Shown piece after piece: positions 33,680-62,400 of a DNA stretch of 64,000 bases. Within the stretch, counting starts at the first letter, position 1. Each line of letters starts with the position of its first letter. Made by a program: the position numbers and the translations under genes. Source of the stretch: Podarcis vaucheri (lineage: Eukaryota); assembly GCA_965113315.1 (NCBI GenBank), contig OZ220364.1; one strand, written 5' to 3'. Under the pieces are notes generated by a model, which did no database searches, was not told the DNA's origin, and saw nothing but the letters and a program-made list of their open reading frames with translations.

Positions 33680-34000
33680 AAATTTAAGACGGTTTGGCTG
33701 GGAGGCAAAGCTAACTCTTGGCCTCTACCTGCCCCACCCTCTCCCTTTTCTAATAAATTTGGGAGTCCTCCTAGAGGTATTCTGGGAAGAAGAAAGGAAA
33801 ATGGACGAACGGTTGAAAATGCCTCCTACAGGTAAAAATAGAAGGGGCTCGAGGCCTGCAGGGGACCCCTGACTTAAAGTATTTATCAACACAGATGCAG
33901 GTATGGATCAGGTCCTGTGACCTGCGTTTTGGTTTGACTCCTTTATTTCTGCCACGCCAGAAATTTGTGTTCTCTCAGAATGGGGCTGAATTTGAAACCT
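33680..34000 (+). promoter_or_regulatory. Candidate MEIKIN promoter / non-coding first exon
   Basis: Slightly CpG-enriched stretch with MYB-type site AACGGTTG (33808-33815), CHR-like TTTGAA (33991-33996) and donors cag|gtaaaa (33832) and cag|gtatgg (33901); the acceptor at 35004 upstream of the ATG implies an upstream exon. Confidence 0.35.
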
Positions 34001-35038
34001 GAGGCAGTTCTCAGTAGGGGAAGGGGGATACCTTGAGGCGAGACCGCTGCCTCCTCTCAGTTGCTCAGGCAGTATTTGTATTTATTTAATCCAAATGTTT
34101 CATTTTCTTTTTGCTTGGTTGCATGATCTTTTGCCCATAGCACTGCAGGCAGTCACAGTTAAAGGCATATCCACGCTGAAACAAAAAGTGGGTTTGGAGG
34201 TAGCTTGCAGCCTGAGGAACCTTGGGAAGTGTAGTTCTGTGAGGGAAGCAGGGCTGCCTGCCTGACAGAAAATAGTCAGCACCTTCAAAAAAATTATTCA
34301 CAGGGTAGGGAACAGTAGCAAGTAGGTGATTTTTAGGTATGTGTTGCAGAAAGGGTATAAGTGTGGAGCGAAGGAGGTGGTAACATTCAGCAACAAAATA
34401 CTATCATAACTAGATTTAAACCAGCTTAATAGTAATCCCATTTCCCCATAGAACTTCAGGAAGCAGAAACTATAGTCTGAGGGATGGAAATGCTTGGGAT
34501 CTTTAACCAATAACTCAGTCTTGTTTACTAATCGACAGCTCCCAGGATTCTTTGTGGATTCATGCAAGAAAAAACTGCCAAAGGTTTATATAGTAATTTG
34601 AGTGTAGGGTGTTTGGCGCTTGAAATTATATTCTAGACAATGTTTGTTTTTGAAGTGTGTATGTGTATTTCATTTGGTGAGGGATCTTTGATATTTGGGT
34701 TTAGAATTGAACATACTCTCTGGCACACCGAGCTCCAGTGAAAACATTTCTGTTCTGTGGGGCTGACAGCCCCTTTATACAGTGAGGTAATATTGGGTAA
34801 TACAGGGGTAAATATGGATTTGTTTAATCCTTCAGGGCATAAACCACAGGAGCTTAAACAAGTTTCAAGAAAGCCAGCAATCCACCAATAAGACTCTTCC
34901 CTTCCCTAAAGGTCATGGTTTTGGTTTTTCCTGGCATCTATGCTTAGATTATATTTTACTTGTCAGAACCTCTTTTCTTAGTATTGCCTCTTACCGCTTT
35001 GTAGGCAGCATTGTTGTGAGGAAAAGAAAATAAAGAGG

Positions 35039-35222
35039 ATGGACTGGGTGAAATTGCGTTCCTATTCCCGGAAGAAGCGGGCTCAACAAAATGTCCATTG
35101 TGCATCTCCTATCCCAGCTGTGGCAGCATCTGCTGCTGTAGGTGCAAGGAATGCTAAAGCCAAAGGGAGTCGGCTGCGCCTAGATCTGCTTTCTGGACCT
35201 CGGCAGGAATCTCATGTCAGAA
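35039..35222 (+). CDS. MEIKIN: MEIKIN first coding exon MDWVKLRSYSRKKRAQQ…ESHVR
   Basis: N-terminus resembles human MWPLRVYTRKKR (from memory); upstream acceptor tttgtag| at 35004; the donor AA|gtaatt at 35223 was chosen because it gives phase 1, compatible with the next exon (3' boundary less certain). Confidence 0.7.
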
Positions 35223-37322
35223 GTAATTGTTCATGCAACTACCTTGTCCTTCCCCATCACATCCCTGTTTGTCTGGATTAATTACAATATTTATTGTGTC
35301 TTTGCGTAGTGGCACAAAGGCCCTAACTACTCTACTGTGTACTGTCTAAAAATGTGTAGGGGTGAGAATGTACTCTTAATGTAGTCACTTTATGTACTCT
35401 TAATGTAGTCACTCTTAATGGAAACACTTTATTGGTGAAATTGGTAGTGGGGAAGAGGGTGAGGTGTTTGTGAATGTGTTGGGGGCTTATCTCACCTGCT
35501 ATGTCTTGATGAGTATTGTAGAAAGCCGCTTGGCCTGCTAAATGCATTACATGGGGCACAGAGATGGGGCTCATTGCTTTCCTTAGTTTGGTTTGTATTC
35601 ATAGTTTTTGTCACAGTTGCTCAGACCCTGACAACACTGAGCTCATTACTCCAGAATGTGCTCCTTCTGCAACACTGAATGTCAACAGTGAACTCGGTCC
35701 TGATGTCAGTCTTTACCATCCCAGCTAAAAATCACCAGCTGCAAATACAAATCAACTGTCCCCAGGGCACACAAGGATGAATCCTACCCTTTGAGCCACC
35801 TCACAGTGGAATCCTGTCTTAGGATGCAAGCACCATTGAACCTAGTGAAACTTACTTCTTGGTAAACAGGCATAAGATTGGGTCTTGAGCCAGTTGCTGT
35901 TTTGCTTTTTCCAAGGTTCTCACTGCTTTTGAAAGCAACACTCCTATCACCTGGTGTTTTTCCAAGCTGTTGAATCCCCACCCTCTCAGGCCACTTTCTA
36001 AATTTATGGTGCTTTCTGGGGCTCCTCTGCTCAACGCCATTCTCTTACAGTGGGCAAAGACTCCTGTACGCAATTGTGTGTTCACATATGGTTTGCTGCT
36101 GCATGCTAGGATTTGTGGGGTGATGTAGTGTGCCCCAAACTGACATTAGAAGTCTAGTGGAGCAGCCCTATGTCTTCTCAGGAGTAGGTTTGTAGCATTC
36201 TGCTGAAACACCTGCATTGGCTGCCCATATGCTCCCAGACCAGGTCCAGCGTTCTCTTATACAAAGCCCTGATCAATGTGAGTCCAGGATACCATAATGC
36301 TTCCCTTAACCCTTATATACCAGCTCACTCACTGAGATAATTTGGAGAAGTACTGCTGGTTGTCCCCCATATTTCAGAAGCCTGATTGACTTCAACGAGA
36401 ATTTAGGCATTTAGGATACCTGGTTCCATTCTGTGAACTCTTCCAGCCTAGATTATTCAGGCATTCTCACAGTTAATTTTCAGGCATCTCTTGAAGATCT
36501 TTTTATGCCAGAAGGCCTATGCAGCTGCTTAAACTTTTGAAGATGAGCCACCCATTTTGTGATTATTTTATATTTTTATGGTATATGTTTTATTGTACAT
36601 GCATATTTTGTTGATACTTTATGTTGAGGGAGTTTTCTATAAATATTATACATAGCATGCATGCATACATACATAACGTACATACGGACTTTATGCAAAC
36701 AGAACACTGATGTTGCCATTCAAGAGTGGTGGTTCATCCAAGTCTCCTCTTTTAGAAATTTTTGATGGTGTACACAATTATTTCCCCTACACCTGTAATG
36801 TTTAGAAACAGCCATTTTTATAAATTGTGTGTGGGTGCCACTGACAACAACACCTGTTCTCATCTGTCGCCAAAATAATTTGCCCCTCTTGAAATGCAAA
36901 GAGCAGGTGGTAAATCTGAATATAGTTATGCACACTTAAGTCAGTGGTGGACTTTGGTCTTTCAGATTTCAGTGTCGCCTTGTGGGCAGCCAAAATTCAG
37001 CACCCCCCTTCCTCTAACCACCTGTTTGGCTCAATTCAGTACATCATAGTTGTGGTTCCCCCTATTGCGGTAGAACCAGTCATGCTGCCCTAAATCCACC
37101 TCTGCTTAAATCCTGTTGTTCCCAGAGGGATTTGCAGATTATTCTCAAATATTTTTGAGGTAAAGTGTTGCTTTATTGTGACATATCCCTCAGTCGCATG
37201 ACAAAAAGATCCTTGTTAGGGGGAGGAGGATAAAGACTAAGTATGGCTGCAGTCTTACCATATGGAGTATTTACCTGTGTGAAGAATAGGTGGAAATGTA
37301 ACCTGTTGATGATTATTCTACC

Positions 37323-37471
37323 CAGTGCTTTTTTCTTGGGGGACGCAGAGGTACGCATACCCCTAAACATTTTGTGAATCTAGGTTTGGCCTCATTGAGG
37401 GGGCAGTATTTCAATATGAGTAGGAAAATGAGAGTACCCCTAAACAGTTTTTTAAAGAAAAAAAAGCACTG
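37323..37471. mobile_element. hAT-type MITE
   Basis: TIR CAGTGCTTTTTT / AAAAAAGCACTG; 8-bp TSD ATTCTACC/TTTCTACC. Confidence 0.78.
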
Positions 37472-38190
37472 TTTCTACCTCAACAGCTCTTAAAACTGCG
37501 CAGCAAAAGTCTTTGATCCAGATAGGCTTGGTTTACCAAGTGCATTAAATTGGACTGTCAGTAGGGGGAGCTTTTTGCCTTCTGATATTGTACTAAGTCT
37601 TGGGAGTATCAAGGGGATGGCCTTAATTTCTTTTTTAAAGAAACTGATAGCAAAACCTGATGAAAATTAAAAGGTGCAAAGGAGTTGTTCCTGCAAATCT
37701 CTGGAGAATGAGAGTTTAACAGGTGTCTTGATTTCACAGTTGTACCAGGACTTTCCTTTTGAGAGCAGTAATTCCATTCTAGTGTAACTCCCTGGTTTTC
37801 TTTTGCTCATTCTTTGTTGACTTGCTAGAGTTGTGTTGTCCTTAGCTGATACACAAACAAAACAAATGTGGAGTAATCTACTGACCTTGAAGAGAATATG
37901 TTCAGGGTGAGTTAACTTGCTTTTTAATGCACCCAACTGTATGTGCATATGTCTTTGCTTTGTTTGCATGCCAAACTATGGTGTATCAGGGCTGTGCAGA
38001 CTCCTGAAGAGAATCTCACAGCTGCCTTACTTCCCCCAAGTCATTTTACTCCTGTACTGTGATGAGTTTGGATTGGCTTAGCTTGTCATACAAACCTAGG
38101 CTCACGGGTAAGCTCTTTCCTCGTTTACCATGAGCTGCAGCCAAGAACAAACCATGTAGTTACTGTGACATATGAACTAGACCTGCATAT

Positions 38191-38535
38191 CATAGAATCA
38201 TAGAATCATAGAGTTGGAAGAGACCACAAGGGCCATCGAGTCCAACCCCCTGCCAAGCAGGAAACACCATCAGAGCACTCCTGACATATGGTTGTCAAGC
38301 CTCTGCTTAAAGATCTCCAAAGAAGGAGACTCCACCACACTCCTTGGCAGCAAATTCCACTGTCGAACAACTCTTACTGTCAGGAAGTTCTTCCTAATGT
38401 TTAGGTGGAATCTTCTTTCTTGTATTGGATCCATTGCTCCGTGTCCGCTTCTCTGGAGCAGCAGAAAACAACCTTTCTCCCTCCTCTATGTGACATCCTT
38501 TTATATATTTGAACATGACTATCATATCACCCCTT
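38191..38535 (-). mobile_element. CR1 LINE 3' fragment
   Basis: (CATAGAAT)n is the reverse complement of the CR1 (ATTCTATG)n tail; minus-strand ORF with ORF2 C-terminal peptide RGDMIVMFKYIKG. Confidence 0.88.
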
Positions 38536-39504
38536 ATTCCCATACATGCTAGGGAGCCACACCAATTGCAGAGTGAGGAATGGCAGGCCAGCCCAGGCAA
38601 ACTGTTTAATGGAGCACCCCCTTCCAATAAACGATCCCGCAGTGAGGTTTAACAGAAGGGTAATAGGCCCTTCACCCAGTGTTTTCAACCTGCTGGGTGA
38701 AGTGCTTGCCGCCCTCCATTAAATGCAATTGCAGCAGGGAAGGGTGTTTCACCAAGCAGTTTAGCAAGAGGCTCTTTGAAGGCCCTCTCCATTAAACCTC
38801 TCTTCAGGCATGTTTGGTAATCTGATGGGTAGATGGGAGCTTGCATCCAGCGCACCATCTCCTTCAACCCTTGCCCCCAAGGTTTGAAAGCCCCGTGGGT
38901 CACTTGAAGTCCCAACAATCAGGGCTTCAAAGGGAAACATTGCCTGGTATCACTATGATGTCAGGTGGGCAGCATGGAGGGGGATGGACAAACTATGGGG
39001 TTTATGGGTGAAGTTTAAAGAATGGGTAGTTGGCTAGGGGGTTGGTGAGCAGAGTGAGCATGGGCAGAACCCCTTGTGTGTGTGTAAGTGTGTGTGTATG
39101 TATCTATGGAAATGTAGGTTGAGTGGTTAATATACACTCAAAGAAAATGTGCACATAATCCATGAAGAAGAAACTGTGTACATTCCCTGTTCAATATAAA
39201 TAATCTCAAACAGTCATGGAGGAATGTGCATATCTTGGTTTGAATTTTGTACATACTCGGGCCACCAGAAATAATTACATTGAAGCCCTTCACTCAGCAC
39301 CTGTATACAAATTGGGTGAATGCCAAACAACTGTGACGTCTTAACATAAAGAAATGATTCTTACTCTCTCTCTTTACATCAAAACAAATCCTTTGGGTAA
39401 TGTAGGACTTTAGGTTAATATAAGTTTATACAGTTTATACAAGATTTGTTCTGTTGGATCATAATCCTGTGTTTGGCTAAACATTCACTTTTTTATCCCT
39501 GTAG

Positions 39505-39595
39505 GACAAATTGGAAATGCCATTACAAAAGCATTGCCCAAAATTCAAGAAGCCTCTGGGGTGACCCAGATGGACTGCCTTTCAGTGGAACAAAG
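39505..39595 (+). CDS. MEIKIN: MEIKIN exon (R)QIGNAITKALPKIQEASGVTQMDCLSVEQ(S)
   Basis: ctgtag|GA…AG|gtatgt, 91 nt, phase 1/2; LPKIQE resembles human LSKIAE. Confidence 0.75.
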
Positions 39596-40038
39596 GTATG
39601 TTATAACAACCATTCCAGTTATTCTATTATTGGATCTGGGGAAAGGTCTTGGGCACTTGAGGCCCCAACTGAGTCCACATAGATGTTGTTGGACTACAAA
39701 TCCCATCAACTCTGACAATTGGCTATGCTGATGGGTTGGAGTCCAACAACTTCTGGAAAGCACCAAGTTCCACACCACCAGTCTAGAAACTGTCAATATG
39801 ATGATGCAGTTCAGCTTTAATTGTATTTATAGGCGTTATGGCCAGGACAGGAAGGACTTGCCTTGTTTTGGGCAACATCCCCAGAGCAATAATAATGCCA
39901 ATTTCTGTTGTTAGTTGATTTAAGTTCAAATTAAGAGAAGTCATTCTTCTCAGAAATTCCAGATATCAGAGTTGGTTTGAAATTGCCTATGAAAAATACA
40001 GACCCGTAATTGTGCTGTATTCCCCCCCCCCCAAATAG

Positions 40039-40117
40039 CACTGAATTAAATGAAAATGAAAACAGAAACATGGAGGTGAATAAAAGTATCAATAAAATGG
40101 GCACTGCTGTATTAAAG
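40039..40117 (+). CDS. MEIKIN: MEIKIN exon TELNENENRNMEVNKSINKMGTAVLK
   Basis: aaatag|C…AAG|gtatgt, 79 nt, phase 2/0 links its neighbours. Confidence 0.7.
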
Positions 40118-41111
40118 GTATGTATTTAATTGTTAAACCTCTTAAATCCCAACAAATCTATGTACTACTAGTAGGGTAAAAACGAAAGACTGCTGCACCT
40201 TCAGAGTCCAGCCAATCAAAATACATATACAGTATTTTGTATGCAGCCAGTGGTGTGTCATGGAGCTGCTTTGCACATCACACTAAGCCAAAATCACAAT
40301 TAAACCATGCTAGCTCCTAGGCAGCATGGTAAGTGATCCGGGATGATGGGAGTTATAATTCAAAATATATGGAAAGCACCAGGTTGTTTCTGTATGTATT
40401 CTGTGGTTCTGACTTTAAAGTGGGGGCAAATCCATCTCTCTGAGGTACGTGGAAATATCAGGGTTTGCAGTAGTCACCAGCATAATTAGTGTACCAGCGT
40501 CTCTGATTGCTGGGAGAATTTTAGTGTGGAGGAATATTAGAAGTCATACTGTTTCAAGTGGTTGGTGTAGAACAGATGAATTGTCATAAAGACCTAAGAA
40601 TATTGTCCAGGCAAGTTCATGGTTATGCTCTATTCACATTGACTTGGATAGTGGCTGGAAATGTGCATCAATCACAATGAAATTTATACAAGTTGACAAT
40701 ACCACTATAGAGGTTCAGTGCCCAGGAAATAACCACCATATGGGTTCAGCTTTAAATTATTCTCTCTGTCATGTTAGTCTCCACACAGAACCTCTGATCT
40801 TAACAGAGACTGTGCTTGGAAGAAATTCTGGGGCTTTGTGGTGAATGAGAAATTCTCCCATTCTGCTTGATGACCTTCTGCAGATGAACAATTTACATAA
40901 TTTAAAATTGCTTCCATGTGGCCATTGATAATACATTTCAAATCCAAGAGTTGCTCTGATCAATGTTAAGGAATATTTTGTTAATGACAAAACTGTGCAG
41001 AACTGTTTCTTTCTGAGAAATTATTTTCATGAATTTTGTATGGTCATAAGGGAAATCACAGTTTTATCTACGTCATACCTTGTCATCTGCATCTTTCACT
41101 GTTGTTCTTAG

Positions 41112-41172
41112 GATTCTTTGCATTTAAGCTCTGCAAGTAAAGAGAGTGCGAGATATAGTGAAACTACATCAG
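41112..41172 (+). CDS. MEIKIN: MEIKIN exon DSLHLSSASKESARYSETTS(G)
   Basis: ttcttag|GAT…TCAG|gtgagt, 61 nt, phase 0/1. Confidence 0.75.
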
Positions 41173-42440
41173 GTGAGTATGCTTAAGCATACTGGATCAG
41201 GAACTGTATTCTTCTAAATATTATTCCAAGTTCCCTAATGTGACTAGTCCTCATGTTAATATTTTAGTTCCCCCAACCCAATTTTAATTCCCCCAACCCA
41301 ACTCTGTGGCCAGTGCTGAAGCTTTCCTCAGGAGCAATTCATATCACTAGTGTTTCTTGTTCAGCCTTCTACATAAGAAGAAGAAAGGCAGAAAAAAAAT
41401 GAATTATTGGGTGAACAGGAGCGAATAACCTTTGGCCCTTCAGATGTTGCTGAATTACAACTCCCATAATCCCTGAGCACTTGGACTGCTGGAAGTTGTA
41501 GTTCAGCAACCTCTGGAGGGCCACAGGTTCTTCACCTCTGGTCTAGAAATACCAGTGGGTGTTCTAGATAGCTTTGCTGAATGCTTGGGCTTCAGGTTGG
41601 TGTATTATAACTAGAGATTTGAAGACCTTTAAAAAAAAACCACAGAAATACGTTTTTCCAGTTTTTTCCTATTTCTGAAAAATTGGAGGAAAGGTTCTTC
41701 CCCCCACTATTTTTTCTGGTTGGGGGGGGGGGAAGAATTCCAGGCCTTCACATCACTAATTATAACAGACTTCTAAAAATTCAAGTAGATTTTGAGCACC
41801 AGTCTGTAGACCAGGATATAACTTTTAATGCCTTGCAGATCTGTATAGCCCAAATATGTGGATAATAACTTAATATTCATTCCCATCAACCATCCTTTTA
41901 ATTGACTGCTCACAGTGGCTGATGGCACCTAAGTCCTAGTCTTATTTCCACCCTAATCATATTGTGCACTTTGGGTCATTTGGTCCACTGCCCATCTGAT
42001 GAAGAAAAGGGATCGCCAGTTACTTTGTTGAAATCCTCAATATTCTTATGAAAAATTGTTAATATATTATAAACCTGTTCTGTTCAGTTTAATTAACCAT
42101 TTTAAACCATGGCACTACATAGAAGTGGTGCTGTTTATCATTTCCAGGATACCTACAGTATTTCTTTTATATAGAATAAATATATTACTGCTTATGATGG
42201 AAGCTGAACATTGCATGTATACAGAAAGAAGTGCAGAGGTTAGCGTATTGGACTAGGAGACGATGGTTCAAATGCGCTTTCAGCCATGAAACTCACTGGG
42301 TTACTTTGGCCCAGTTGCCATCTTTCAATCAAACCTCCCTCACAGGGTTATTGTGAGGGTAAAAGAGGGATAGAAAGAACCATGTGGATGTATGTCACAT
42401 GGAGCTCCTTAAAGGAAATTTAGGACATGTAACGTAATAC

Positions 42441-42794
42441 GCGGGTGGCGCTGTGGGCTAAAGCCTCAGCGCCTAGGGCTTGCCGATCGAAAGGTCGGCG
42501 GTTCGAATCCCCGCGGCGGGGTGCGCTCCCGCTGCTCGGTCCCAGCGCCTGCCAACCTAGCAGTTCGAAAGCACCCCCGGGGGCAAGTAGATAAATAGGT
42601 ACCGCTTACCAGCGGGAAGGTAAACGGCGTTCCGTGTGCGGCTCTGGCTCGCCAGAGCAGCGTTGTCACGCTGGCCACGTGACCCGGAAGTGTCTCCGGA
42701 CAGCGCTGGCCCCCGGCCAATAGATGTGAGATGGGCGCACAAACCCCAGAGTCTGTCAAGACTGGCCCGTTCGGGCAGGGGTACCTTTACCTTT
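42441..42794 (+). mobile_element. Sauria SINE, CpG-rich (young)
   Basis: Same consensus as 8595; TSD TAACGTAATAC at 42430-42440 and 42795-42805; inserted at the tail of an older MIR/CORE-like SINE (~42230-42430). Confidence 0.92.
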
Positions 42795-43129
42795 TAACGT
42801 AATACAAAATGAAAACTAATCCAATTGAAGCTATTAGTGTTGCTCTTCTCCATCTTTCTCTCACGTGGCCTGCCTTCTGTTCTTGTGTTCGCAGGACTAT
42901 ATTGTATATTGTATAACATACAGTCTTAACTGCATCACATTAAACACATACATATATCTAATGTTTTTCCTAGTTCAGCTCTCCACTGGAGATGTGTATT
43001 TTTTTTTTCAAACTGAAGCCCAGATCTTAACATTTGTATGCATTTATAGGTGCCCAGCATATCAAGGGTACCTGAATGAGCACTTTCAGACTGAGTAGTG
43101 TCCTGATCTCATTTTTCCTTTATTTCCAG

Positions 43130-43270
43130 GAATGACTTTACCCACAGGTGTTTCACATTTTCTGCTGCAGTGTTTGGATGAAGAGTCTTCTCTGTGCTCT
43201 AATACAGAATCTAGTGATGGAGCAAGTACTTATTCATCACCTGAGATATTCAGAGATGAAAACACATTAG
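43130..43270 (+). CDS. MEIKIN: MEIKIN exon MTLPTGVSHFLLQCLDEESS…YSSPEIFRDENTL, with the separase ExxR site
   Basis: ttccag|GA…TTAG|gtatgc, 141 nt; SPEIFR matches human SPELFR. Confidence 0.88.
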
Positions 43271-43444
43271 GTATGCATGCTTATGCTCTACATGTGGGAG
43301 TGACCGTTTGAGAAAAGCATGTGTGCACGCATCTATATTTTTTAGTTGCAGAATGTAGGGCAGAAATTGGGAACCTGTAGTCCTCCAGATGTTGCTTTCT
43401 TTTCAGCCCCAGCAAGCACGGCCAATAGTCAGGGATCATAGTAT

Positions 43445-43588
43445 CTTAGAATTTGTAGAGTTTGAAGGGATCACGAGGGTCATCTAGTCCAGCCCCCTGC
43501 AATGCAGGAATATTTTGCCCAACATGGGGCTCAAACCCATGACCCTGAGATTAAGACACTCATGATCTACTGACTCAGCTATCCCAGA
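43445..43588 (-). mobile_element. tRNA-Lys-headed SINE with CR1-derived tail, nested in a hAT MITE (~43357-43630)
   Basis: Reverse complement GGGATAGCTGAGTCAGTAGATCATGAGTGTCTTAATCTCAGGG…CCTGCATTGCAGGGGG…GGACTAGATGACC; + strand copy at 46735-46862. Confidence 0.65.
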
Positions 43589-44048
43589 GAGGAAAAACAT
43601 TTGGAGAGCAATTGACTCCCCATCCCTGCTGTAAGGCCTGACTACACTACATTTTTATTTGATTAATCAAGTCCATCATATAGTCAAGTGGGGAAAACTT
43701 TGCTAATTGATTGTTGCCAAATGCCTCTTAATTTGGTCAGAGAATGTCCATTTAATCCAAGGCTAGAGTTCAGAGTGTCCTTGGCAATTCTTGACCTATA
43801 CTACATTTTTTTGATTGGCTTAACCCCAGCAATGGGCAATCAACCACACATTGATTGCTAAACAAGTGCTTCAAATTACATTCTCAATAATTTTTTGTAG
43901 GGAGGGGATCTAAAGTCTTTACACTTTATGCCATAACAAGCCAACTGAAATCTGTGGAGGTTCTTCAAGAGTGATCAGCTTACAAATGCAATCAGCTTAC
44001 AAGCATTTCAGAAAGATGGTATCAACCATATTGTGTTATGTGTTTTAG

Positions 44049-44168
44049 AAAAAAGCAGCACTGGTCCAGAAGAATGCCTTGGGCACAGGAATTCAACCCT
44101 CTTGGATACCAGCAAAGCCATCAACATAGACAAGATGCCACATGTGCCAAATCTTTCACAGATACTGG
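44049..44168 (+). CDS. MEIKIN: MEIKIN exon KSSTGPEECLGHRNSTLLDTSKAINIDKMPHVPNLSQIL
   Basis: ttttag|AA…CTGG|gtaacc, 120 nt; NSTLLDTSKA matches the conserved Meikin core. Confidence 0.92.
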
Positions 44169-44800
44169 GTAACCTTGAACATGTTACATAAGTGTTTGGT
44201 TGCCAGCTTGAGTTTAAACCTTTCTTTGATGCAGAGGGGAGCAAATGAGGGTGTTGGGAACTTGAGTTGGTGCTTCCACACTCCAAGTGGCAGAGCTGAA
44301 TGTCTGGAAATAAAGCAGCTTGATGATGAGACCATGGGAAGACTAAAGTGGTTTGAAGAGGAAAGATTAAGCATCCTAGACACAATTGGTCAAGCTACAG
44401 GGTGGGGCCAATTCATATATCCTTTTCTTCAGTCCGTCTCCTGTGTCAAACCAGCATCTATTCAGGGCTGCCCCAGCTGCCCAGCAACTTACTATAACAA
44501 CTTCATGGTTAGCTCCAGCACCTATTTTTCTTGAAAAAAAGCACTTGGAACAAATGTCAGTTCGTTTTTCTGTGAATTGACGTTTGTTCCAGTTCAGGGC
44601 TAAACAGCTGATTATCCCAGGGAAAGCAAGGGGCAAGCGAAAATCCTCTTGGACCCATGCTTTGAAAGCACAGGACAAGCAGAAAAACTCAGACCTGTGC
44701 TTTCTGGGCATGGGACAAGCAGAGGTGTGGATGAGTCCTGTGTTCTGCTGTATTGATCTAGCTTACCTTGATCACACTCTTCACATTTGATCTCTTCTAG

Positions 44801-44837
44801 AAACCACTTTAGGAAAAAAAGACCAGAGCATTACAAG
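44801..44837 (+). CDS. MEIKIN: MEIKIN short exon (E)TTLGKKDQSIT(R)
   Basis: ttctag|AA…AAG|gtaata, 37 nt, phase 1/2. Confidence 0.7.
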
Positions 44838-44857
44838 GTAATATCAAAGCAAAATAT

Positions 44858-45379
44858 TGTTACATGCCATCCTAGTCTCCGAGCGGTGTGAGATTCCAGG
44901 GGTTCCAGGTGCTTCTCCAGGGATTGTGTTTCTAAAGAAATGAGCCACAGCGGAGGCTGTGATGTCTTTAGGATATACGGTTTATTTACACATACTTTAT
45001 ATACAACCTGAGTCTGCGATGGGGAGGTTCAAAGCATTAACACTCCAAAAGGTTCTTGCCCCTCCCATGGCCATAGTCTTGGATGCCAGCAAAAATCAGC
45101 CATCAGCCTCTGGTCAGCTTGCTATGTTTAACAGACTGCCACTTTTCTCTCAGGCTTGCTGACACAGCCGGCAACTATTTTTTCTCCAACCGACGTCATC
45201 CCCAACTGCAATCCTAAAAACAACTGCTCTCCTTCCAATTCTAAAACTCCACTTCAAAGGCTTTTGTCTCTCTAGCCAATTATGAGTTGAGAGAGGGGGT
45301 CGGGTATCTGGCACCCAGGAATTATAAGCAGGGTCCAGGAATTAGAAAGGGAATTCAGGCACCCCACAAACGCATAACA
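44858..45379 (-). mobile_element. Solo LTR (Gypsy-like)
   Basis: TGTTA…TAACA termini, 4-bp TSD ATAT (44854-44857, 45380-45383), minus-strand AATAAA at 44981-44986. Confidence 0.7.
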
Positions 45380-45737
45380 ATATTTTTTTGTGACTGCTCT
45401 TTTTTTAGAGACAGTATATATGCAACTGCTCGGAGTAATGACTCTGATTGTGGCAACTACATAAAGCACTGCTTTAGCCATGGCCATTAAGAAGCAACAG
45501 CTGTAGCCAGGGAAATCCCCTCTCACAAAGAGAGCACATTGGTGGAGCATCCTATTATGGCAAAATTGAAGATATTAATTGGTCTGTTGACGCATTAGCC
45601 AGTGTATTTTCACTAGATTTGAAGTGATATTAGCCAATTAGGAAAGAAATCACTTGGATCTTAATGGAAATTTTGTGAGCAGCTAAGCATATAACTACTT
45701 TCTTACTTCAGTCTTTTTTTATTTTTTACTGTGGCAG

Positions 45738-45793
45738 GCTATCAAAGCAGAAATCACGTTCTGAATTGACAGATGTTTCAGCTGTAGTTGCAG
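45738..45793 (+). CDS. MEIKIN: MEIKIN exon LSKQKSRSELTDVSAVVA(G)
   Basis: tggcag|G…GCAG|gtaaat, 56 nt, phase 2/1. Confidence 0.7.
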
Positions 45794-46553
45794 GTAAATA
45801 ATGTTATTTAAAACAAACAAGTTGCAAGTTATGTGACGCGACTAGCAGATTTGTTTTTGCTGTGTGCTTTTAAAATAACAAGTTCAGGCCACAGGGCCTG
45901 TGTATAATGATGGCCCTGAAAGGTTGCCCCTCTTTGCCTGGCTTGGTGGCCCTCCTGGCATTGAAATTCCCTTAGCTCAAACAGCTGCAGAGCCGGATAA
46001 GAGATGAACATGGAAGCCAGCACTAAAGCAGAATGAGGGAAGTAAACATGCCATTGCCTCTTCCTCCTCAGTCAGGCAATTAGAACGCTGCAAGGCATGG
46101 CAGGAACACTGACTGCAAACAGGGAAAATGCTGGCGGTTTTTTAAAACGAAACACCAAAATACTGTGGCTCCTCCTGGCTGCAGACTGCACCCCAGTCCT
46201 TCCTGGTTACCATGGCAACTGTGTTTGTGGACTCTTGAAAAGTGATTCATCCAGAGTAGCTCACCCCCACCCCATTTTCATACTTGCAGACACACATACC
46301 ATTTAAGAATCTCTTTCCACTAAAAAAAGGGGAAGGAAAGAGAAAATTGAGTGAAAAGGACAAGCTACATAGTGTTAAGGGGTGGTTAAAAGCTCAGAAA
46401 TTGAGGCCGAATGAATGGCTCTGCAGATCAGCCAGTAAATGACTGCAGATCAGCCCATGACCCCCAGACTGCAGCACAAAATTGAGACAGAGAAGTAGCT
46501 GGACCAATTTGCACAGTCAAATTGAAGAATTATTTTTCTTCCTGTTTTCTCAG

Positions 46554-46648
46554 GGAAACAAGTGTGCAAAATTTTGCCTGCAAAGGAAAAGACACCTGAA
46601 TTGCAATCTTTTGGAGCCTCCTTATTGCCTCAAAAACAAACAAAAAAG
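46554..46648 (+). CDS. MEIKIN: MEIKIN exon KQVCKILPAKEKTPELQSFGASLLPQKQTKK
   Basis: ttctcag|GG…AAG|gtgacg, 95 nt, phase 1/0; resembles human ACEILLAEKT…KTKKK. Confidence 0.78.
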
Positions 46649-48359
46649 GTGACGAGTTTAATGTTCATAGGTTGCCATGTGTGAATTGGGATAGTGGTGT
46701 GGTGGACAACTAACTGTAGTGACACAACAATGGAAAGATAGCTCGGTAGAGTATGAGACACTTAATCTCAGAGCCGTAGGCCATGTTGGGGAGAAGATGC
46801 CTGCATTGTAGGGGGTTGGACTACATGACCCACATGGTCCCTTCCAACTCTACAATTCTATAATTTTATCCATCCTACCTATAGATAAATCTGGACAGAA
46901 GTGTGGTAATAATCTTCAGTTGACATTAGTCCTTTCATTCATTTTTAAAAAAAAAATCCAGTAAGGGGTCATCATGGGTTTACTGGGGATGGGGCTATAG
47001 TCCTGGCACACTACCTGGCCCCATGTTTAGATGAGCATTCTGTTACCCTGGATCAGTCACCCTGACCAAGGGGCAGGAGCTCAAGCAGTAATCACATGAC
47101 GGCACCTTAGTGCCAGTGATGAGTGAAGGGGGCTGTACTTGATGCTACAACTTCAGAATAGGTCATGCTATGGTGGCGCAGTGGGATTGTTAACCCTTCC
47201 CCTGCTTGCTGACTCTGCTCTCACAATTCTTCCCTGGTCCTCCCCACGCACTTTATGGGGCAGCTTTCTGTGTTCCATTGTACATTGAATTATTTGGGTG
47301 GGTAATGATTAAGCACCTCTTGTTTTCTTTCTTTTGAAGTTGGATTTCAAGTTGACCTCGTGGAAATCATTGGAACATCCAATTATAAAATAGCAGAATT
47401 AAAGTTGTCCCTTTAACCTGTCTTAAATAGCCACCCAAATAAAAATGTTCTGGTAACTTAGGCTCTAAATTTGGTAAACCTTTGGAGAAGGAAGCTGCTA
47501 TACCTGAGGCATCCTCAAAAGAAACTTACTGGGCCCTAGTGGTACAAATTCAGTTTTTTCATATATTATAGAAAGGTGCTCTCGGCTTATCTTTCAACTA
47601 ATCTTTTTACATAATATGAAACCACTTCCCATCTAGAATCTCTAGTCAGTGGCTATTACTTGTTCTTCTAAGTGGGTGTGGTTATCTTTTCTTCTGTGTA
47701 ACTCATTAAATAGTTGACAGTGTGAGCTCAGTGAAGGCCAAAGTAGAGGGGCAAACCACTCACTTGCAGAATTTTCCTTTTACAAATATGTTTGTGTGTG
47801 TGTGTGTGTGTGTGGTCTTGATCAAAATAAAGGGTGGCTTCTGTTCATGATGAAAGGAAAGCTATTTGTTAAAAGAAAAAACTGTGCAAAGACAAGCTTC
47901 ATAGCAGATATCTAGATTGCTCCTCACATTGCCCTTTTGTCCTCACACTGAGATTTTGGAATTGGGAATTGTTAGTGTTCTTGTGCTAAGATCATTTGGA
48001 ACAAATGTCATGTTTTTAGTGAACATAAAATGGGTCAAGCACTCTATTGGCTGGCCGTCTTCCAGGGACTGTCATGTGATCCTATAGTCCTAATGAAGTA
48101 TAGTGCAACGACTAAAACCTTGATCTCATCTATCCTCTGCCATGAGATTACTAGTTGGCCTTCAGCAAGCTGCTATCTCTTTCTACCTCCCCTGCAACAT
48201 GAGGCTAATAAGTGAGAATTTCATCATGCTATTGTTCATAAGAATTACTGAGATGTATACAAAGCGCTTCAATTGCTCAAAATGCTGTCTAAAACACTTT
48301 TAAGTACGTCCTTTACAAGTGTTGATGATACTACTATACAATTCTTCATGTTTCTGTAG

Positions 48360-48512
48360 ACTAAAGATCAGCAACCCAGGAAAATGAAGTGCACAAAAAG
48401 AGTACTGTTTTCCTCATCCTCATCCTCATCCTCTCCTTATGTATTGAGTCCAGCCAAATTTTGCGGAATTGCAGCTGAAACCTTAGGCTCTGCACAGCCA
48501 GGTACTGGCATG
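48360..48512 (+). CDS. MEIKIN: MEIKIN exon TKDQQPRKMKCTKRVLFSSSSSSSSPYVLSPAKFCGIAAETLGSAQPGTGM
   Basis: ctgtag|ACT…ATG|gtaagt, 153 nt, phase 0/0, open; no human counterpart that I recall. Confidence 0.62.
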
Positions 48513-49481
48513 GTAAGTTGTTTTCAACTGCTAAGCTTTAAGGGAATGGGGAGTGCTGCACTTGGGGGTTAGAGAGCTGCTGCAAGGCTAAGAGATGCAG
48601 AAACTATACTGAATGGTGGGTGCTATGGGAAATTACAACGCAAAAGCTGGCAAAAGACAAAAGTGGCACTAGTTAAACTAGGTGTCGGGAGACCTGGGGC
48701 TTTGGGATGTTGTTGGACCCCAGCTCCCATCGTCTCTAACTATTGGACACACTGACTAGGGCTGATGGGAGGCTGGGTCATGTTAAACAATATGAATGAG
48801 CCTTTTGTGGTCTGTGGGCTGAATTGGCTCTTCAAAATTGGGAGTCTCTCCTCCATTTGGCGTGGTTCCACTTAGAGGTGTATTTAGTGTTCAGGAAACA
48901 GGAAGTAGTGCTTCAGTTAGCTTTTCCATACTTCCATACTTTTGCCCCCTGCTTTCTAGGCACAGGTCTGGGCTTTAAAGCTCATTGTCTGAGCACTTCC
49001 CACCCACCCACACTTTCCCCAGGAAAACTCTAATGCAGAATCAAAACAAATGGCAATTCGGGTTTTGGGCAAATTGCCATTCGCTCCGATTCAGTGATAA
49101 AGAGTGGGGCTTTGCAGGAAAAGAACTGGCGCAAAAATAAAAGTGCTTGGATGGGGGGCATTAAAACACAGACCTATGTCTAGAAACACAGCACAAAAGG
49201 AAGTCTGGATGAGCCCAGAGTCTTCTCAGGCATGTTCACTTGACATTTTGCTTTCAGAATGAATTCAGAGTATCCTGCGATACAACCAAAGCATTCTGTT
49301 TACAGGAAAATCTGGTTATCTGCTTAAAATGGATTTCTCTCTTATAAAGGAATTCAATTTGGAAACTGGATGGGGCTGCAGGTAGATGTTTTATATGAAG
49401 GAAATTAAATATTTTAAAATTAACAGCAGAACAGATTGCTCTCCCTCTTTGCTTCTGATAAACTTTTATGTCTGTCTATCG

Positions 49482-49557
49482 GAGAGCAGTTCCAGAGCAG
49501 TGAACATAGGAAAGAATAAAGCGCTGTTAACAAGTGCAGCACTTCTACAGACAGAAG
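49482..49557 (+). pseudogene. MEIKIN: Apparently decayed MEIKIN exon ESSSRAVNIGKNKALLTSAALLQTE (homologue of the human GKKNRGLLTSTPSSETA exon)
   Basis: Translation similarity at the expected gene position; expected donor reads G|attgag (no GT) followed by an in-frame TGA; acceptor weak (ctatcggag). Confidence 0.55.
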
Positions 49558-50037
49558 ATTGAGAGTTTAGCAAAATAAGCTCAAAACAAATGTAACCATT
49601 TGCATTTATTTCCATGTGAATGATACGATGCAATGAAATGTGTTTATATTTAAAACATCAGGGTCTTGGTGTTGTTGTTTTTATCAGTTTCAGGCGGCCA
49701 TTTTCAAACCAGTTTTGTGGGCCAAAAGCTATATCTCATTTATCTGCAAAATTTCCTGGCTTTTGAAATGTTTCTCAGTACTGTATGTGCTAGTAGCTGT
49801 TTTGAAATCTGGGGGCCACTTTAGGCAATACCTTTCCTGTGTAGAAAATAATCATCATGCAGGAAGAAAAGTACTTGCATTCATATAAAAATTGCACATA
49901 AATAACCGTTGCGGCTTCCAAATATGTGGCAAAATAGATGTCGGTACTGGTGGCCAGAGTGTAGGGAAAAAGCTGTACATCTCCACTTACCTGTTGTTCA
50001 AACCACAAACTAATTTCTTTTCTTCCTCTTTACTAAT

Positions 50038-50040
<3 letters not shown>

Positions 50041-50083
<43 letters not shown>

Positions 50084-50100
50084 CATTATTATTATTATTA
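50041..50100. repeat. (TTA)n microsatellite
   Basis: About 20 units with one TCA interruption. Confidence 0.95.
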
Positions 50101-50643
50101 AACATGCATCTCTTAAGATACACAAAAGGCTTAAAAGAGATAGTGAATGGCTTCGTGGTAGTGTGTGGATTTCACTCTTGGTCTACTCCGTTCAATGTGC
50201 CACACTAGCTTTCTTTTAAAGGAAAGAAAAGAAGCACAAACAAACTGTAAGATTGCCTTCATTTGCCTTATCAGTAGTTTAGGTCATCCTGAAGACAGAT
50301 AAGTATATATTCAGAGATTCTCAAGTATTACACTAAATGTTCCGCTCAATTCAGAAAAGCAGTATGCATGTGTCCTTTTGTCTTTCTTCTGACAAACAAC
50401 TGCAGTTACCCCCTAGGGCTGTAGCAGTGTGCTGGGAGAGAGAAGCTGAGTGACCTGTGACAGTCACGTACTGACAAAGAGAAGGCTAATTGTCATTCTT
50501 CCTCATGACTCAGACAGGCTGTATATGCAAAGTATAGGATGCCAGGAGGGGACTCATTTGAAAGCTTGCTTCACCTTTTATTTGAAGGATCTTAGATCCG
50601 TATTAATGAGAGTGCTGTACATTTTTGTTTTGTTTTGATATAG

Positions 50644-50769
50644 TTGGACTCTTCATCAGTGCATAAAGTCTCACTCGGTGAAGCTTCCTTGCCAAGCACA
50701 AGTCGTTCAAATGTAAATTCAAAAGAAGTCATTCCTGCTTCCCTGTCTCCAGAAAGTGTTATTCATCAG
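50644..50769 (+). CDS. MEIKIN: MEIKIN exon LDSSSVHKVSLGEASLPSTSRSNVNSKEVIPASLSPESVIHQ
   Basis: gatatag|TTG…CAG|gttata, 126 nt, phase 0/0; resembles human IDLSSVQKASFEE…VNSNEIVP. Confidence 0.8.
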
Positions 50770-50821
50770 GTTATATCTCTATTATATTTTTCCCTTTGCG
50801 GCAGTGCTAACCACACGTACT

Positions 50822-50858
<37 letters not shown>

Positions 50859-51732
50859 ACATACTTTTAAATAGACAGGGCAGGAGAACATATCAAATGA
50901 TTCCAAAACTCAAAATTGCCTATCTATGGTAAGTGAGAATGGGATATTTAAATCGAAGTCATGTTGTGAGGCCTGTCCTAAACCTGTTTGATTATACAAG
51001 CTGCTGCCACAAAGAAAGTCCAATGTGGAGCTGCATTAAAAAAATATATATAAAAAAAAGCACAAGCAAGAATGCGCAGTACTTGGCCACATTTTAATTA
51101 TTTTAAACTTTAAGACAAGAAGTACTCCTCCCCACCCACCAATAAGGGATTATGAAGGAAAATGAATCCCTTTGACTTCCATTCAAAAAACCAGCTGGAC
51201 CAATTTGTCTTCTACTGGGAAAGCTTAATCCACTCCTGGACCCATAAATCTCATCCAAAGGCTAAAATAATAATAATAGATGTGTAAAGAATCTCTAGTA
51301 CAGTGAATGGGGGAACACAGAGCTTTGTTTTATGCAGTGTCGGTTGGAACCCAAAGTATAGATTAAAGTGGAGAGAGTACAGAGTGTCTCAAAAACAGTT
51401 TGTAAAGTACAGATTCAGGGTGAATCGGGGGTGGGGCTTGGGCTGTGTACATCCCTACCTTTTGGCACCATCCATAATGCACTTTTGCTGAAAAAATAGC
51501 AGAACCAGGGTTTTTTCCACCCAGAGCCTGTAGGGGGTGAAAAGAGTATGTTTGTAGTGAACACATTTAGGACACCTTCCTGTTGGCGGAATGTCCCACA
51601 TAACATGGCTTTTTCCAGATATTAAAATTACAACCATAGTTTAGTGTTATCGTTTATGAGCAGCACCAAGCCTTGAGCTTGTGAACGCCCTTCTCCTTTT
51701 CCTTTGGTACAGCCTAAAGGGGACTGGACGCA

Positions 51733-52095
51733 GGGACATGGGTGGCACTGTGGTCTAAACCACTGAGCCTAGGGCTTGCCGATCAGAAGGTCGGCGGTTT
51801 GAATCCCTGCGACAGGGTGAGCTGAGCTCCTGTTGTTCGGTCCCAGCTCCTGCCATCCTAGCAGTTTGAAAGCATGTCAAAGTGCAAGTAGATAAATAGG
51901 TGGGAAAGGTAAACGGCATTTCCATGTGCTACTCTAGTTTTGCCAGAAGCGGCTTAGTCATGCTGGCCACGTGACCCAGAAAAACTGTCTGTGGACAAAC
52001 GTTGGCTCCCTCGGCTAGTAAAGCAAGATGAGTGCCGCAACCCCAGAGTCGTTCATGACTGGACTTAACTGTCAGGGGTCCTTTACCTTTACCTT
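51733..52095 (+). mobile_element. Sauria SINE, different subfamily
   Basis: GGGACATGGGTGGCACTGTGG head, (ACCTTT)n tail, TSD TAAAGGGGACTGGA at 51715-51728 and 52096-52109. Confidence 0.9.
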
Positions 52096-52398
52096 TAAAG
52101 GGGACTGGAAGCTTTTGCTTTTAAACTAATCATAATTCCTCATTATGTTCAAACTTGAGAGTTCTCTGACTAGCATAAATGATGCTTTGTCAGGATCAAA
52201 TATGATTTACAATCCTGACTTTCTGTCTAACTGTTTTTGAACTCTTGAGTTTCCTGAGTTAAGATGCAAACAAAGGAACTCTGCTTTGCTTAAGTGGAAG
52301 CAAATGCTTCCAGGTTCTTCCCCGTGGCCACTCTGGAGGAGAAAAGGGGAGAGGGAGCATAGGAGCCCAAAGCTATTGGTTCATAATTCAGTGCTATA

Positions 52399-53054
52399 AC
52401 TTCATTGGGTCCCGGCACCGAGGAGGATAAAATAAGATGTTCAAAAGCACAGCGAGATAATGAAAGGAAATAAAATCCAAAGGAAGGAGGGGAGTCGGCA
52501 ACAAAGGGCATTTAGTTAAAAGAGTTCTTTGAGCTCCGATAAGAGTGTCTTACCTCGGCGCCATCTTGAAAGTACTCCCTAAATTAATAATCCCAGCCCA
52601 ACGTAGGGCTTTTATGCTGGCCCGGTTGAATGTCTTTCCCTCAGCATTTGTCCGGGGAAGATATCAAAACATCCCTAGAAACAAGAGATTCTGCAGATGC
52701 TCTATGAATGTCCCGGACACTGTAGAGCATATTCTCTTTCATTGCCCATTGTACAGTACGCTCCGTCAACGCGTGCTGTCCCCTCTTTTGGGTGGTCTGG
52801 AACCCCAGCAAGGTGAATGTGCGGGATTCTGCCTATCCGACGTTGACCAAAGGGTAATGGCGGGGGTAGCCGAGTTTTTGGCTGCAGTCCTCCAAGGAGC
52901 AGGTTAACAAGGAAAACCACTGATTTTATATGTATATATATATATATATGATTGTAGCCAACTGCTGCCTTTTTATATATATTTCAAGGCTTTTACATGT
53001 TATTTTCCTTCTTACGGTTTTTATTTCCATAATGCCTAATAAAGGTTTGATTTC
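52399..53054 (+). mobile_element. 5'-truncated RTE-X-like non-LTR retrotransposon
   Basis: ORF 52545-52907 RRAFMLAR…GRY…RFCRC…EHILFHCPLY (C-terminal CCHC); AATAAA 53038-53043; 14-bp TSD AATTCAGTGCTATA at 52385-52398 and 53055-53068. Confidence 0.8.
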
Positions 53055-53124
53055 AATTCAGTGCTATATCAAAGCCCAGTCTATGCCTTGTAGGATGGCC
53101 TAAGTTTTGTTCCATTTCTTTCAG

Positions 53125-53248
53125 TGTCTACGTAACCCTCCAGAAATCTGCTGTATCATTAAAGCTTCACCAGGATCTAGACCACTGAAAGTTCTCCAAC
53201 ACCCACTGAAAAGAAAAAGAGAGTTTCCCCCACCAGGAGCAACTGAAG
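53125..53248 (+). CDS. MEIKIN: MEIKIN exon CLRNPPEICCIIKASPGSRPLKVLQHPLKRKREFPPPGATE (CENP-C-binding C-terminal region)
   Basis: tttcag|TGT…GAAG|gtaaag, 124 nt; EICCII-x-x-SPG signature. Confidence 0.92.
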
Positions 53249-53855
53249 GTAAAGCAGGACAAGGGGATACAGAATATGTATTTATTGTGAGAACTCCTTA
53301 CACAAGGAAGAGGTTTGGGGGGGTGGTGGTTGTTGTCAACTGTTGAAGTTCCTATTTTTGACTGAAGGAATCCTTATTTGTAAGTATAGGTCATGCCACA
53401 AAACTTCCCTTCTGTTTGAATCTACAAAACAAATTGCTGGGGGACATTGGGCTTGGACTTGGGTTCAAAGCCCAGCTCAGCCCAGAACTTGCCAGGTCAC
53501 TGGGCAAACCATGATTTCTCAAACATTGTGAGAGATGTAACTGAATGGTAGAGCATCTGCTTTGTATGCAAAAGGTTCCAGGGTTCAACCCCAGGCTTGC
53601 CCAGGTAGAGCTGGAAATGTCTCTAGTCTGAAACCCTGGAGAACCACTGCCAGTGTAGATGAGATGCTTTCATGCAGAAAGAAGATTCCCAGGTTCTGTC
53701 TGGCACCTCTAGGCCAGGTTGTAGATATGCTGGTGGGTCTCCTGGGTGGCAGAAGCAGGGAGATTGCATAGCTCTGTAAGTCAATTAAAGTGATATGTTT
53801 TCTCCAAAAAGTGAAATTGAAATTAATTCCCAATGCAAACTGATTTCTTTTTCAG

Positions 53856-53875
53856 ATCTTATTACCAAATACTAG
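53856..53875 (+). CDS. MEIKIN: MEIKIN terminal coding segment (D)LITKY*
   Basis: tttttcag|AT CTT ATT ACC AAA TAC TAG; phase 1; resembles human DIIIKMA*; the 13 exons total 1287 nt (divisible by 3). Confidence 0.8.
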
Positions 53876-61199: not shown

Positions 61200-62400
61200 T
61201 CCAGAGCGGCTCAGGAGTTCCACATCCTCCAGGGTCGTGGATTTCTAGTCGGGGCGTGGGGAGGAAAACCAGGCAAAACTCCACAAAGCCATCCCATCCA
61301 AAGCGCAAGGAGCACTCGGGCGTCCCCATTCCCGTCTCCGTCTTAGAATGCGGCCTGTTTCGTGCTCAGTAAGCTAAAACTCAGCGGATCGGAGGCGAAG
61401 TTGGCGGGAGAGCCCAGGCCGAGCGCCTCCCGCTTTCCTCCCTTTCCCTTCCCTCTCCTTCCTTGCACCAAAACATCCCCAAGCGCCGCCGCTCCACCAA
61501 AGCCAAGCAGGGATCGCCGTGTTCCCCACGTGGGCTGGGCCGGGCCGGGCCGCGCGGCCAATCGGCTGCCGGGAAGCCCGCGCGAAACCCCGCCCGCCCG
61601 CCTCCCCCTCCCGCCGCGGCTGCTCCAAGTGATTAATTTTTGTCATATGACTGTCACACCGAATGGAGTCGGGTTCGCGGAACTAGCCGGCCGTCGCAGC
61701 TCGCGCGCGGGGAGGGGGGAGATCGCTGGCTGCTCCGGGCTTGGCCCCGCGAGAGCGGCGCGCTCCCAAAATGCCGCCCACACCCACCTTGTTGCAGAAG
61801 CTCTTCAACAAAAAGAGCGGCTTGGTCTCCCCCTGCAAGGAGCCCCGGGAAGAGTGCGTCTTCAGGTAAGGGGGCAGGCAGGGGGCGGGTGGAGCAGGGG
61901 CTGGGGCTGGCCCTGGGTTGGTTCCGGGGTCGGATCGCGGCGGGGCTGATCCCCATCCCCTCTCCGGCTTGGGGGCACTGCTTGGCTTCCTTGCTGCTCT
62001 TTGCGGAGTCGCCCTCTTCGCCTACCATCCGAGCCACGCCGCCGATTCTTCTCTTCCCCATCCCTAACTTGACACACCAGACTCTCCTTCTCTCCCAGCC
62101 TCCCCCCTTTTCCCCCCAGGAGGAGGCGGAGGGGCGGGCGGGGAGTTTTCCTGGCACCGTCTTGCCTTGGCGGCCACACAGCCGATCTGCCTCCCAGGCG
62201 GAAATCACACGGATGTGTCTCTTCGCCATGCGCCAAAACTTCGCGCAACGTTGTTTCTACTTTTTGAGGAGCTCCCTCTCGCTCCTCTTCCTCCTACTCG
62301 TGCCTCGGAGGATCGTGGCCGTCACGTGCGTGCAGAGCCGAGTATCCCCCCCCCAAAAAAAAATCACTTTCTTGAGTTGCAAAAAGAGAAACGGCTCCCC
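61200..62400 (+). promoter_or_regulatory. FNIP1 CpG-island promoter
   Basis: High GC/CpG; CACGTG 61527-61532, CCAAT 61558-61562, GC boxes ~61588-61603, palindromic GTCATATGAC 61642-61651, GTCACGTG 62321-62328; G-tracts after the exon 1 donor. Confidence 0.85.
61771..61865 (+). CDS. FNIP1: FNIP1 (folliculin-interacting protein 1) exon 1 CDS MPPTPTLLQKLFNKKSGLVSPCKEPREECVF(S)
   Basis: Matches the FNIP1 N-terminus (MAPTLFQKLFSKRTGL…DCGFS, from memory); donor CAG|gtaagg; CpG island; synteny downstream of MEIKIN. Confidence 0.92.

Follow-up and report, generated by a model that had tools for sequence, protein, structure and literature searches.

The window analyzed here, that is, the whole stretch of 64,000 nucleotides from contig OZ220364.1 of Podarcis vaucheri (GCA_965113315.1), contains the MEIKIN gene on its plus strand. 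The features of the gene that our analysis uses are the following.

35039..53874, plus strand: MEIKIN coding span, 13 exons and 428 aa, the sole locus matched in the genome
43234..43254, plus strand: S-S-P-E-I-F-R, a predicted separase ExxR site whose Cdk serine lies in an S-[pS]-P
44090..44158, plus strand: N-S-T-L-L-D-T-S cluster and N-L-S, equivalent to human S175, T176, T180, S181 and S196; the likely remaining PLK1 docking region
48360..48512, plus strand: live exon upstream of the dead exon described below, with a phase 0 donor and a run of Ser that closes with SSP (48429-48437); the contig of run X19 leaves the genomic sequence here
50644..50769, plus strand: live exon downstream of the dead exon; the loose end of the X19 contig agrees with 29 of its first 30 nt
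53125..53874, plus strand: last two coding exons, with the ICCII and DIII-type motifs (CENP-C-binding in MEIKIN); the DIII-type motif reads DLIT

All 12 introns of the 13-exon model are bounded by AG/GT, and the model is colinear with P0013. The exon words of the annotated Podarcis MEIKIN fall in order along the window, and one exon is 100% identical to P0002, whose cluster members carry the MEIKIN annotation. Among the best candidates scored, the single DNA match and all seven genome protein matches to P0004 lie inside the gene; no second copy that could account for the relocation raised in the first-pass annotation was found there. A Pfam scan gave no MEIKIN family match, with no useful result for any of the four proteins submitted; the homologues are listed under PF27928. 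Judged by its sequence, the lizard gene is an ordinary MEIKIN orthologue.

Compared with human MEIKIN (P0311), the lizard protein has in common the predicted separase ExxR site including the P6 (Cdk) serine (residues 174-180, aligned with human 149-154), the N-S-T-L-L-D-T-S cluster, the S196-type site and the C-terminal ICCII and putative DIII-type motifs, in the same block order, and all five non-STP PLK1 sites are kept in the alignment. ICCII is intact and DLIT is the second C-terminal motif. The lizard protein differs by the absence of all three human STPs (T251, T264 and T276), the exon of T276 being dead, and by an extra region lying between them and missing in human; the 428-aa product has no STP, as annotated earlier, and has two SSP motifs. 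Lizard PLK1 keeps the exon with the His-Thr-Lys phosphate pincer. The MEIKIN tail (53856-53874) is two residues shorter than that of the congeners and than in the five lacertid models compared, which could reflect either a change in this species or a slip of the assembly. Upstream, 33801-33831 and 35005-35033 form a possible additional exon, with an ATG and a GT donor, splicing to the first coding exon and giving a 19-codon upstream frame whose stop lies 5 nt before the main ATG. Downstream, 61772-61866 is the first coding exon of another gene, in a GC-rich island; this gene may be FNIP1, which lies next to MEIKIN in mammals. A search of solved structures with this first exon returned 0 matches.

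The exon at 48360-48512 is followed in phase 0 by that at 50644-50769, as previously proposed; between the two lies a further exon with the following parts.

49482..49565, plus strand: dead MEIKIN exon of 28 codons, 84 nt, phase 0-0, homologous to the human T276 exon by position and spacing
49480..49481, plus strand: broken acceptor, CG instead of AG; relative F has no listed difference
49533..49541, plus strand: remnant of the motif, reading S-A-A where lizards and turtles that keep the exon have S-T-A and mammals S-T-P
49560..49562, plus strand: premature TGA of recent origin, read as TTA (Leu) in relative F through a difference at 49561
49566..49567, plus strand: broken donor, TT instead of GT; relative F has no listed difference

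The first-pass annotation had read this interval as a dead pseudo-exon, and its translation over 49482-49562, the S-A-A reading and the damaged acceptor all hold. Its donor lesion (G/att at 49558) was misplaced, the real one being GAG/TT at 49566-49567 at the end of 28 codons, and the TGA, correctly seen, had been put after the exon; in the register of the homologues it is codon 27 of the 84-nt exon, nonsense where relative F has a leucine codon. In alignment, the Rhineura and Hemicordylus homologues have 28 additional residues precisely at the junction of the flanking exons. When the six frames of the window were scanned with a profile of this exon from 29 reptile species, 49485-49565 scored 33.7 bits (E 4.9e-10) and the second-best place 2.7 bits. 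The dead exon is identical to that of Pogona at 22/28 positions and to that of Rhineura at 19/28; its likeness to Rhineura (68%) falls within the range of the six live exons compared (55-82%). It departs from conserved columns at three residues, namely codon 2, the motif Thr (Thr in 29/29 reptile keeper species) and one Pro (Pro in 28/29), and among the 30 sequences compared the motif Thr is altered in the dead exon alone. In combinations of 10 acceptors and 15 GT/GC donors near the exon, no cryptic AG/GT pair reopens a frame of at least 20 nt; open frames of at least 20 nt come only from five weak GC-donor pairs, none of them with the Thr.

Of the 24 listed runs, four (X1, X10, X17 and X19) were mapped over 48436-49800, each in the form of contigs. 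A DNA contig of the same species (run X1, depth 36.8, covering 49189-49800) is equal to the window across the dead exon and its splice sites, which answers the earlier concern about assembly error; its two differences from the window both lie upstream of the dead acceptor. At window positions 49443 and 49447, in the intron just upstream of that acceptor, both DNA runs differ from the window, probably reflecting the other haplotype. In DNA of relative F (run X10), the sole difference inside 49480-49567 is at 49561, where TGA becomes TTA. The CG acceptor, the TT donor and S-A-A are thus common to both species and the stop codon is not, which indicates that splicing died first and that the stop is younger.

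Support for skipping comes from run X19 (relative G), in which a contig of depth 63.8 leaves the genomic sequence at 48512 and continues into the start of the exon at 50644 (29/30 nt). The predicted junction is therefore present, in a single contig of a single run from another species, and was read from the loose end of that contig; the RNA status of the run is the tool's guess, no listed holder of the stretch being recorded as RNA, but a contig that bridges an intron of 2.1 kb points to splicing. The contig of X17 stops at 48493, short of the junction. Both X17 and X19 have zero RNA depth over 49264-49800, a value we discount as evidence since contigs drop rare isoforms and are compatible with rare inclusion of the exon. 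All nine lacertid models, from four species, skip it.

The homology of this interval to a coding exon, the splice sites broken in DNA and the exclusion from transcripts, in the relative's contig and in the lacertid models, are those of a pseudo-exon, and we conclude with near certainty that 49482-49565 is a dead MEIKIN exon. Splice-site decay is a known route to the loss of symmetric cassette exons, and the present case resembles it in the multiple-of-three length, the 0-0 phase, the damage to both splice dinucleotides and the later nonsense codon. It differs from ordinary decay in that the lacertid loss takes away a signalling motif almost invariant in mammals, and in that the squamate losses seem to be three. 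As to its age, the window species and relative F differ at 9 positions in about 610 nt, and the three amino-acid changes that they have in common at conserved columns (Poisson interval 0.6-8.8), set against those differences, suggest a death several times older than the split of the two species (A and F), an estimate too rough for an age.

The lizard exon by itself is ordinary splice-site decay, and its value lies in the pattern that it exposes among vertebrates. Homologues were taken from the best 120 of 177 matches (twice), 101 representatives and cluster members, with one protein omitted from the mammal set; the sample extends to neither tuatara, teiids nor lacertids other than Lacertini. 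The cut-off for exon detection was 12, and Tiliqua (10.1) was counted as a keeper from its alignment (15/28). Among the mammalian models listed, the exon was detected in 111 of 119, with STP at the site in 111/111, and some STP is present in 117/119. Among the 174 sauropsid models listed, by comparison, not one has STP at the site of the dead exon and six have it elsewhere. The exon is kept, with S-T-A, in 27 of the 28 turtle models listed (17 species) and in all 29 models listed from ten non-lacertid lizard species, Rhineura accounting for 4/4 of its own, and, with S-T-G, in both crocodilian models listed. All 29 non-avian reptile species that keep the exon therefore read S-T-A or S-T-G with an invariant Ser-Thr. 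The first-pass annotation had described a change from S-T-P to S-A-A in the lizard; the immediate ancestor was S-T-A, so that only Thr>Ala belongs to the lacertid line. Of the bird models listed, 36 of 80 have a detectable exon, none with S-T. The snake models listed (21/21, nine species) and the gecko models listed (5/5, four species) are without the exon as annotated, an absence weakened by the fact that the neighbouring exon is also often missing from models.

Outside the sauropsids, STP occupies the site in mammals (echidna included) and in newt, caecilian, coelacanth, lungfish and one shark; the possum reads SSP. It is absent from the site in three models of Xenopus tropicalis and one of axolotl, the former indicating that the motif was lost outside reptiles too, and for Xenopus laevis the figure legend of a preprint marks an STP site by alignment (10.64898/2026.09.11.750869). 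The homology to the mammalian exon, questioned at the outset, is supported by position and spacing: the reptile motif site aligns to human T276, and in 11 of the 12 proteins compared, which include lungfish, human, turtle and lizard, the interval between the motif and the D/N-L/V-S of the following exon is free of gaps, the twelfth, newt, being one letter off the pattern and aligning otherwise. The profile of non-reptile sequences (mammals, amphibians and coelacanth) is weak, with 6.3 bits and E 0.19, but is top in the window at the right place; the link appears to be carried by position and spacing rather than by the profile.

From this distribution we infer that STP at the site is ancestral and that its proline was lost on the stem of reptiles and birds. 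The death of the exon probably followed the loss of the proline, on three separate occasions (lacertids, snakes and geckos), because their sister groups, Rhineura, iguanians, anguimorphs and scincomorphs, keep the exon. The count of three follows the accepted squamate topology. Two other motifs have a different history: the cluster N-S-T-x-x-x-T/S-S is present in 172 and S-P-E-x-x-R in all 174 of the sauropsid models listed, and the former is the most conserved stretch of MEIKIN from shark to human. Homologues of the next exon (50644-50769; 126 nt, phase 0-0) are missing from many bird and gecko models and from some lizard models. This exon is probably an alternative cassette, and two adjoining symmetric exons would then be labile.

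The functional meaning of these changes can be approached through the human protein. In Maier et al. (10.1101/2020.11.29.402537), joint mutation of the three STPs of human Meikin reduces PLK1 binding and does not abolish it, additional loss of S175, T176, T180, S181 and S196 abolishes it, and binding requires PLK1 activity. The Polo box, as described in PMC13161223, needs S-pT/pS-X, with Pro at X mainly selecting CDK priming; sites without Pro can arise by self-priming, and pSer is bound less well than pThr. Reviews unite MEIKIN, Moa1 and Spo13 by a Ser-Thr-Pro Polo docking motif (PMC7379579, PMC7617577). Set against the MOKIRs Moa1, Spo13 and Matrimony, as outlined in the same reviews, lizard MEIKIN is likewise predicted to be a meiosis-specific kinetochore Polo adaptor, and the STP docking site that defines them is absent from it and from all reptile and bird models fetched.

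We favor an explanation that, as a whole, we consider reasonably probable: the exon would have died once its Polo-box site was dispensable, and PLK1 is predicted to use the conserved N-S-T cluster upstream for docking. CDK1 priming may have been removed by a single change of Pro>Ala in the ancestor of the sauropsids, after which S-T-A could have been kept as a secondary, PLK1-primed docking site. The Ser-Thr, invariant in the 29 keepers, points to continued selection on the site wherever the exon persists; it seems to matter there, and its loss may not be neutral. The frame-neutral 84-nt exon could then drop out without a frameshift, presumably in three separate squamate losses, the birds having eroded the motif in place; in lacertids, the splice lesions and Thr>Ala, common to relative F, would precede the stop. 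Reptile MEIKIN likely holds the Polo kinase through other, conserved sites. By extension from the human data, lizard MEIKIN would still bind CENP-C, be cut by separase and recruit PLK1, with PLK1 self-priming at N-S-T and D-T-S, which the Cdk site of S-S-P-E-x-x-R may initiate. A more specific version is tentative, and we lean somewhat against it: that a CDK1-primed STP became a PLK1-self-primed S-T-A at the origin of the sauropsids, and that lacertids, snakes, geckos and birds then dropped S-T-A and were left with the N-S-T cluster alone.

The S-T-A of the keepers has Leu at -3 in 28/29 species, no Pro at +1 in 29/29, and at -2 a residue that is neither acidic nor an amide. In CENP-U, the residue that follows T78 is also Ala. 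The reptile L-L-T-S-T-A resembles the self-primed CENP-U/PBIP1 T78 site, as presented in PMC13161223, in Leu at -3, Ser at -1 and the lack of Pro at +1, and differs from it in having Thr or Ala rather than D/E/N/Q at -2 and no neighbouring STP that could serve relay priming, so the comparison is one of analogy only.

Other readings of the same data were weighed. One, close to the lineage-specific loss of canonical PLK1 docking that had been proposed for this DNA, holds that this lizard lineage lost STP docking by killing the exon and that its MEIKIN differs in kind from that of other reptiles. The death of the exon, a motif Thr changed here alone among the 30 sequences compared and the intact exon of the sister lineage Rhineura speak for it; the absence of STP from the site throughout the sauropsid models refutes it for the proline, which leaves of it the possible loss of a working S-T-A site, the snake and gecko models fetched are likewise without the exon, and the non-STP sites needed for binding in human (10.1101/2020.11.29.402537) are kept in the lizard. 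We regard it as quite improbable. Slightly less so, and still unlikely, is that MEIKIN of lacertids, snakes, geckos and birds does without PLK1 recruitment, PLK1 arriving at meiotic kinetochores by way of BUB1 or CENP-U, described as its master docking sites in PMC13161223, and MEIKIN acting through CENP-C and separase cleavage. The lack of STP, the loss of the S-T-A site in four ways and the weakened human binding without STPs agree with this reading, but STP-less human Meikin still binds PLK1 (both human results from 10.1101/2020.11.29.402537), and the second PLK1-binding cluster is the stretch of MEIKIN best conserved from shark to human.

We give a similarly low probability to the idea that docking moved, with CDK priming kept, to a Cdk-primed SSP, either the one that ends the Ser run of 48360-48512 or that of the separase motif. 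The former is present in 9/9 lacertid models and in five of the six snake models examined, and S-pS-P fits the Polo-box rule, although pSer is the weaker ligand (both from PMC13161223). This SSP is also found, however, in the exon keepers Rhineura, Hemicordylus and Varanus, is absent in three of four gecko species and in iguanians, and belongs to a low-complexity Ser run of the kind that yields SSP by chance. The run itself (48411-48437) varies in length among lacertids, and its SSP end is a possible substitute docking site. Least probable, and very much so, is that the exon is still included at a low level through cryptic sites or that its lesions are assembly errors. The frame is open in relative F and AG dinucleotides follow the old acceptor at a distance of 3 to 8 nt; against this, the lesions appear in two DNA runs of two species, no GT donor yields an open frame with the motif, and the exon is in no lacertid model. 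A link to parthenogenesis was considered and dropped, given that Varanus, which is capable of facultative parthenogenesis, keeps the exon and sexual lacertids do not. Judged by title and opening of the abstract, none of the listed papers on MEIKIN and parthenogenesis concerned reptiles.

The consequences of this pattern reach beyond lacertids. STP has been presented as the one feature common to MEIKIN, Moa1 and Spo13, and fertile reptiles and birds are without it, some of them even without the exon; the pattern directs human genetics toward the 175-181 cluster rather than toward the STPs. If the more specific version given above is correct, the N-S-T cluster, and not the textbook STP, would be the original central site of PLK1 docking on MEIKIN in vertebrates, and an entire vertebrate class would have a MEIKIN-PLK1 timing uncoupled from direct priming by CDK1. 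The turtle and Pogona (S-T-A), lacertid (exonless) and human (three STPs) forms are natural separation-of-function alleles that can be compared for the real PLK1 docking site and its priming kinase. The pattern is undescribed in the titles and abstract openings of the papers listed on MEIKIN with lizards, reptiles, chicken, Moa1/Spo13 evolution or STP and on squamate exon loss, and MEIKIN is unmentioned in PMC12225707; sequences from reptiles or birds may already figure in the alignments or supplements of Kim et al. 2015 and of Maier et al. as published in the journal.

Some observations concern the collection of homologues itself. The MEIKIN homologues of coelacanth, lungfish, caecilian and Xenopus (P0143, P0152, P0145 and P0146) carry unrelated or empty annotation names. 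Unnamed matches resembling ray-finned fish sequences keep the N-S-T-L-L cluster, mostly without STP. One sea turtle protein (P0077) has an STP at aa 256 in a context like that of human T251, likely a separate gain.
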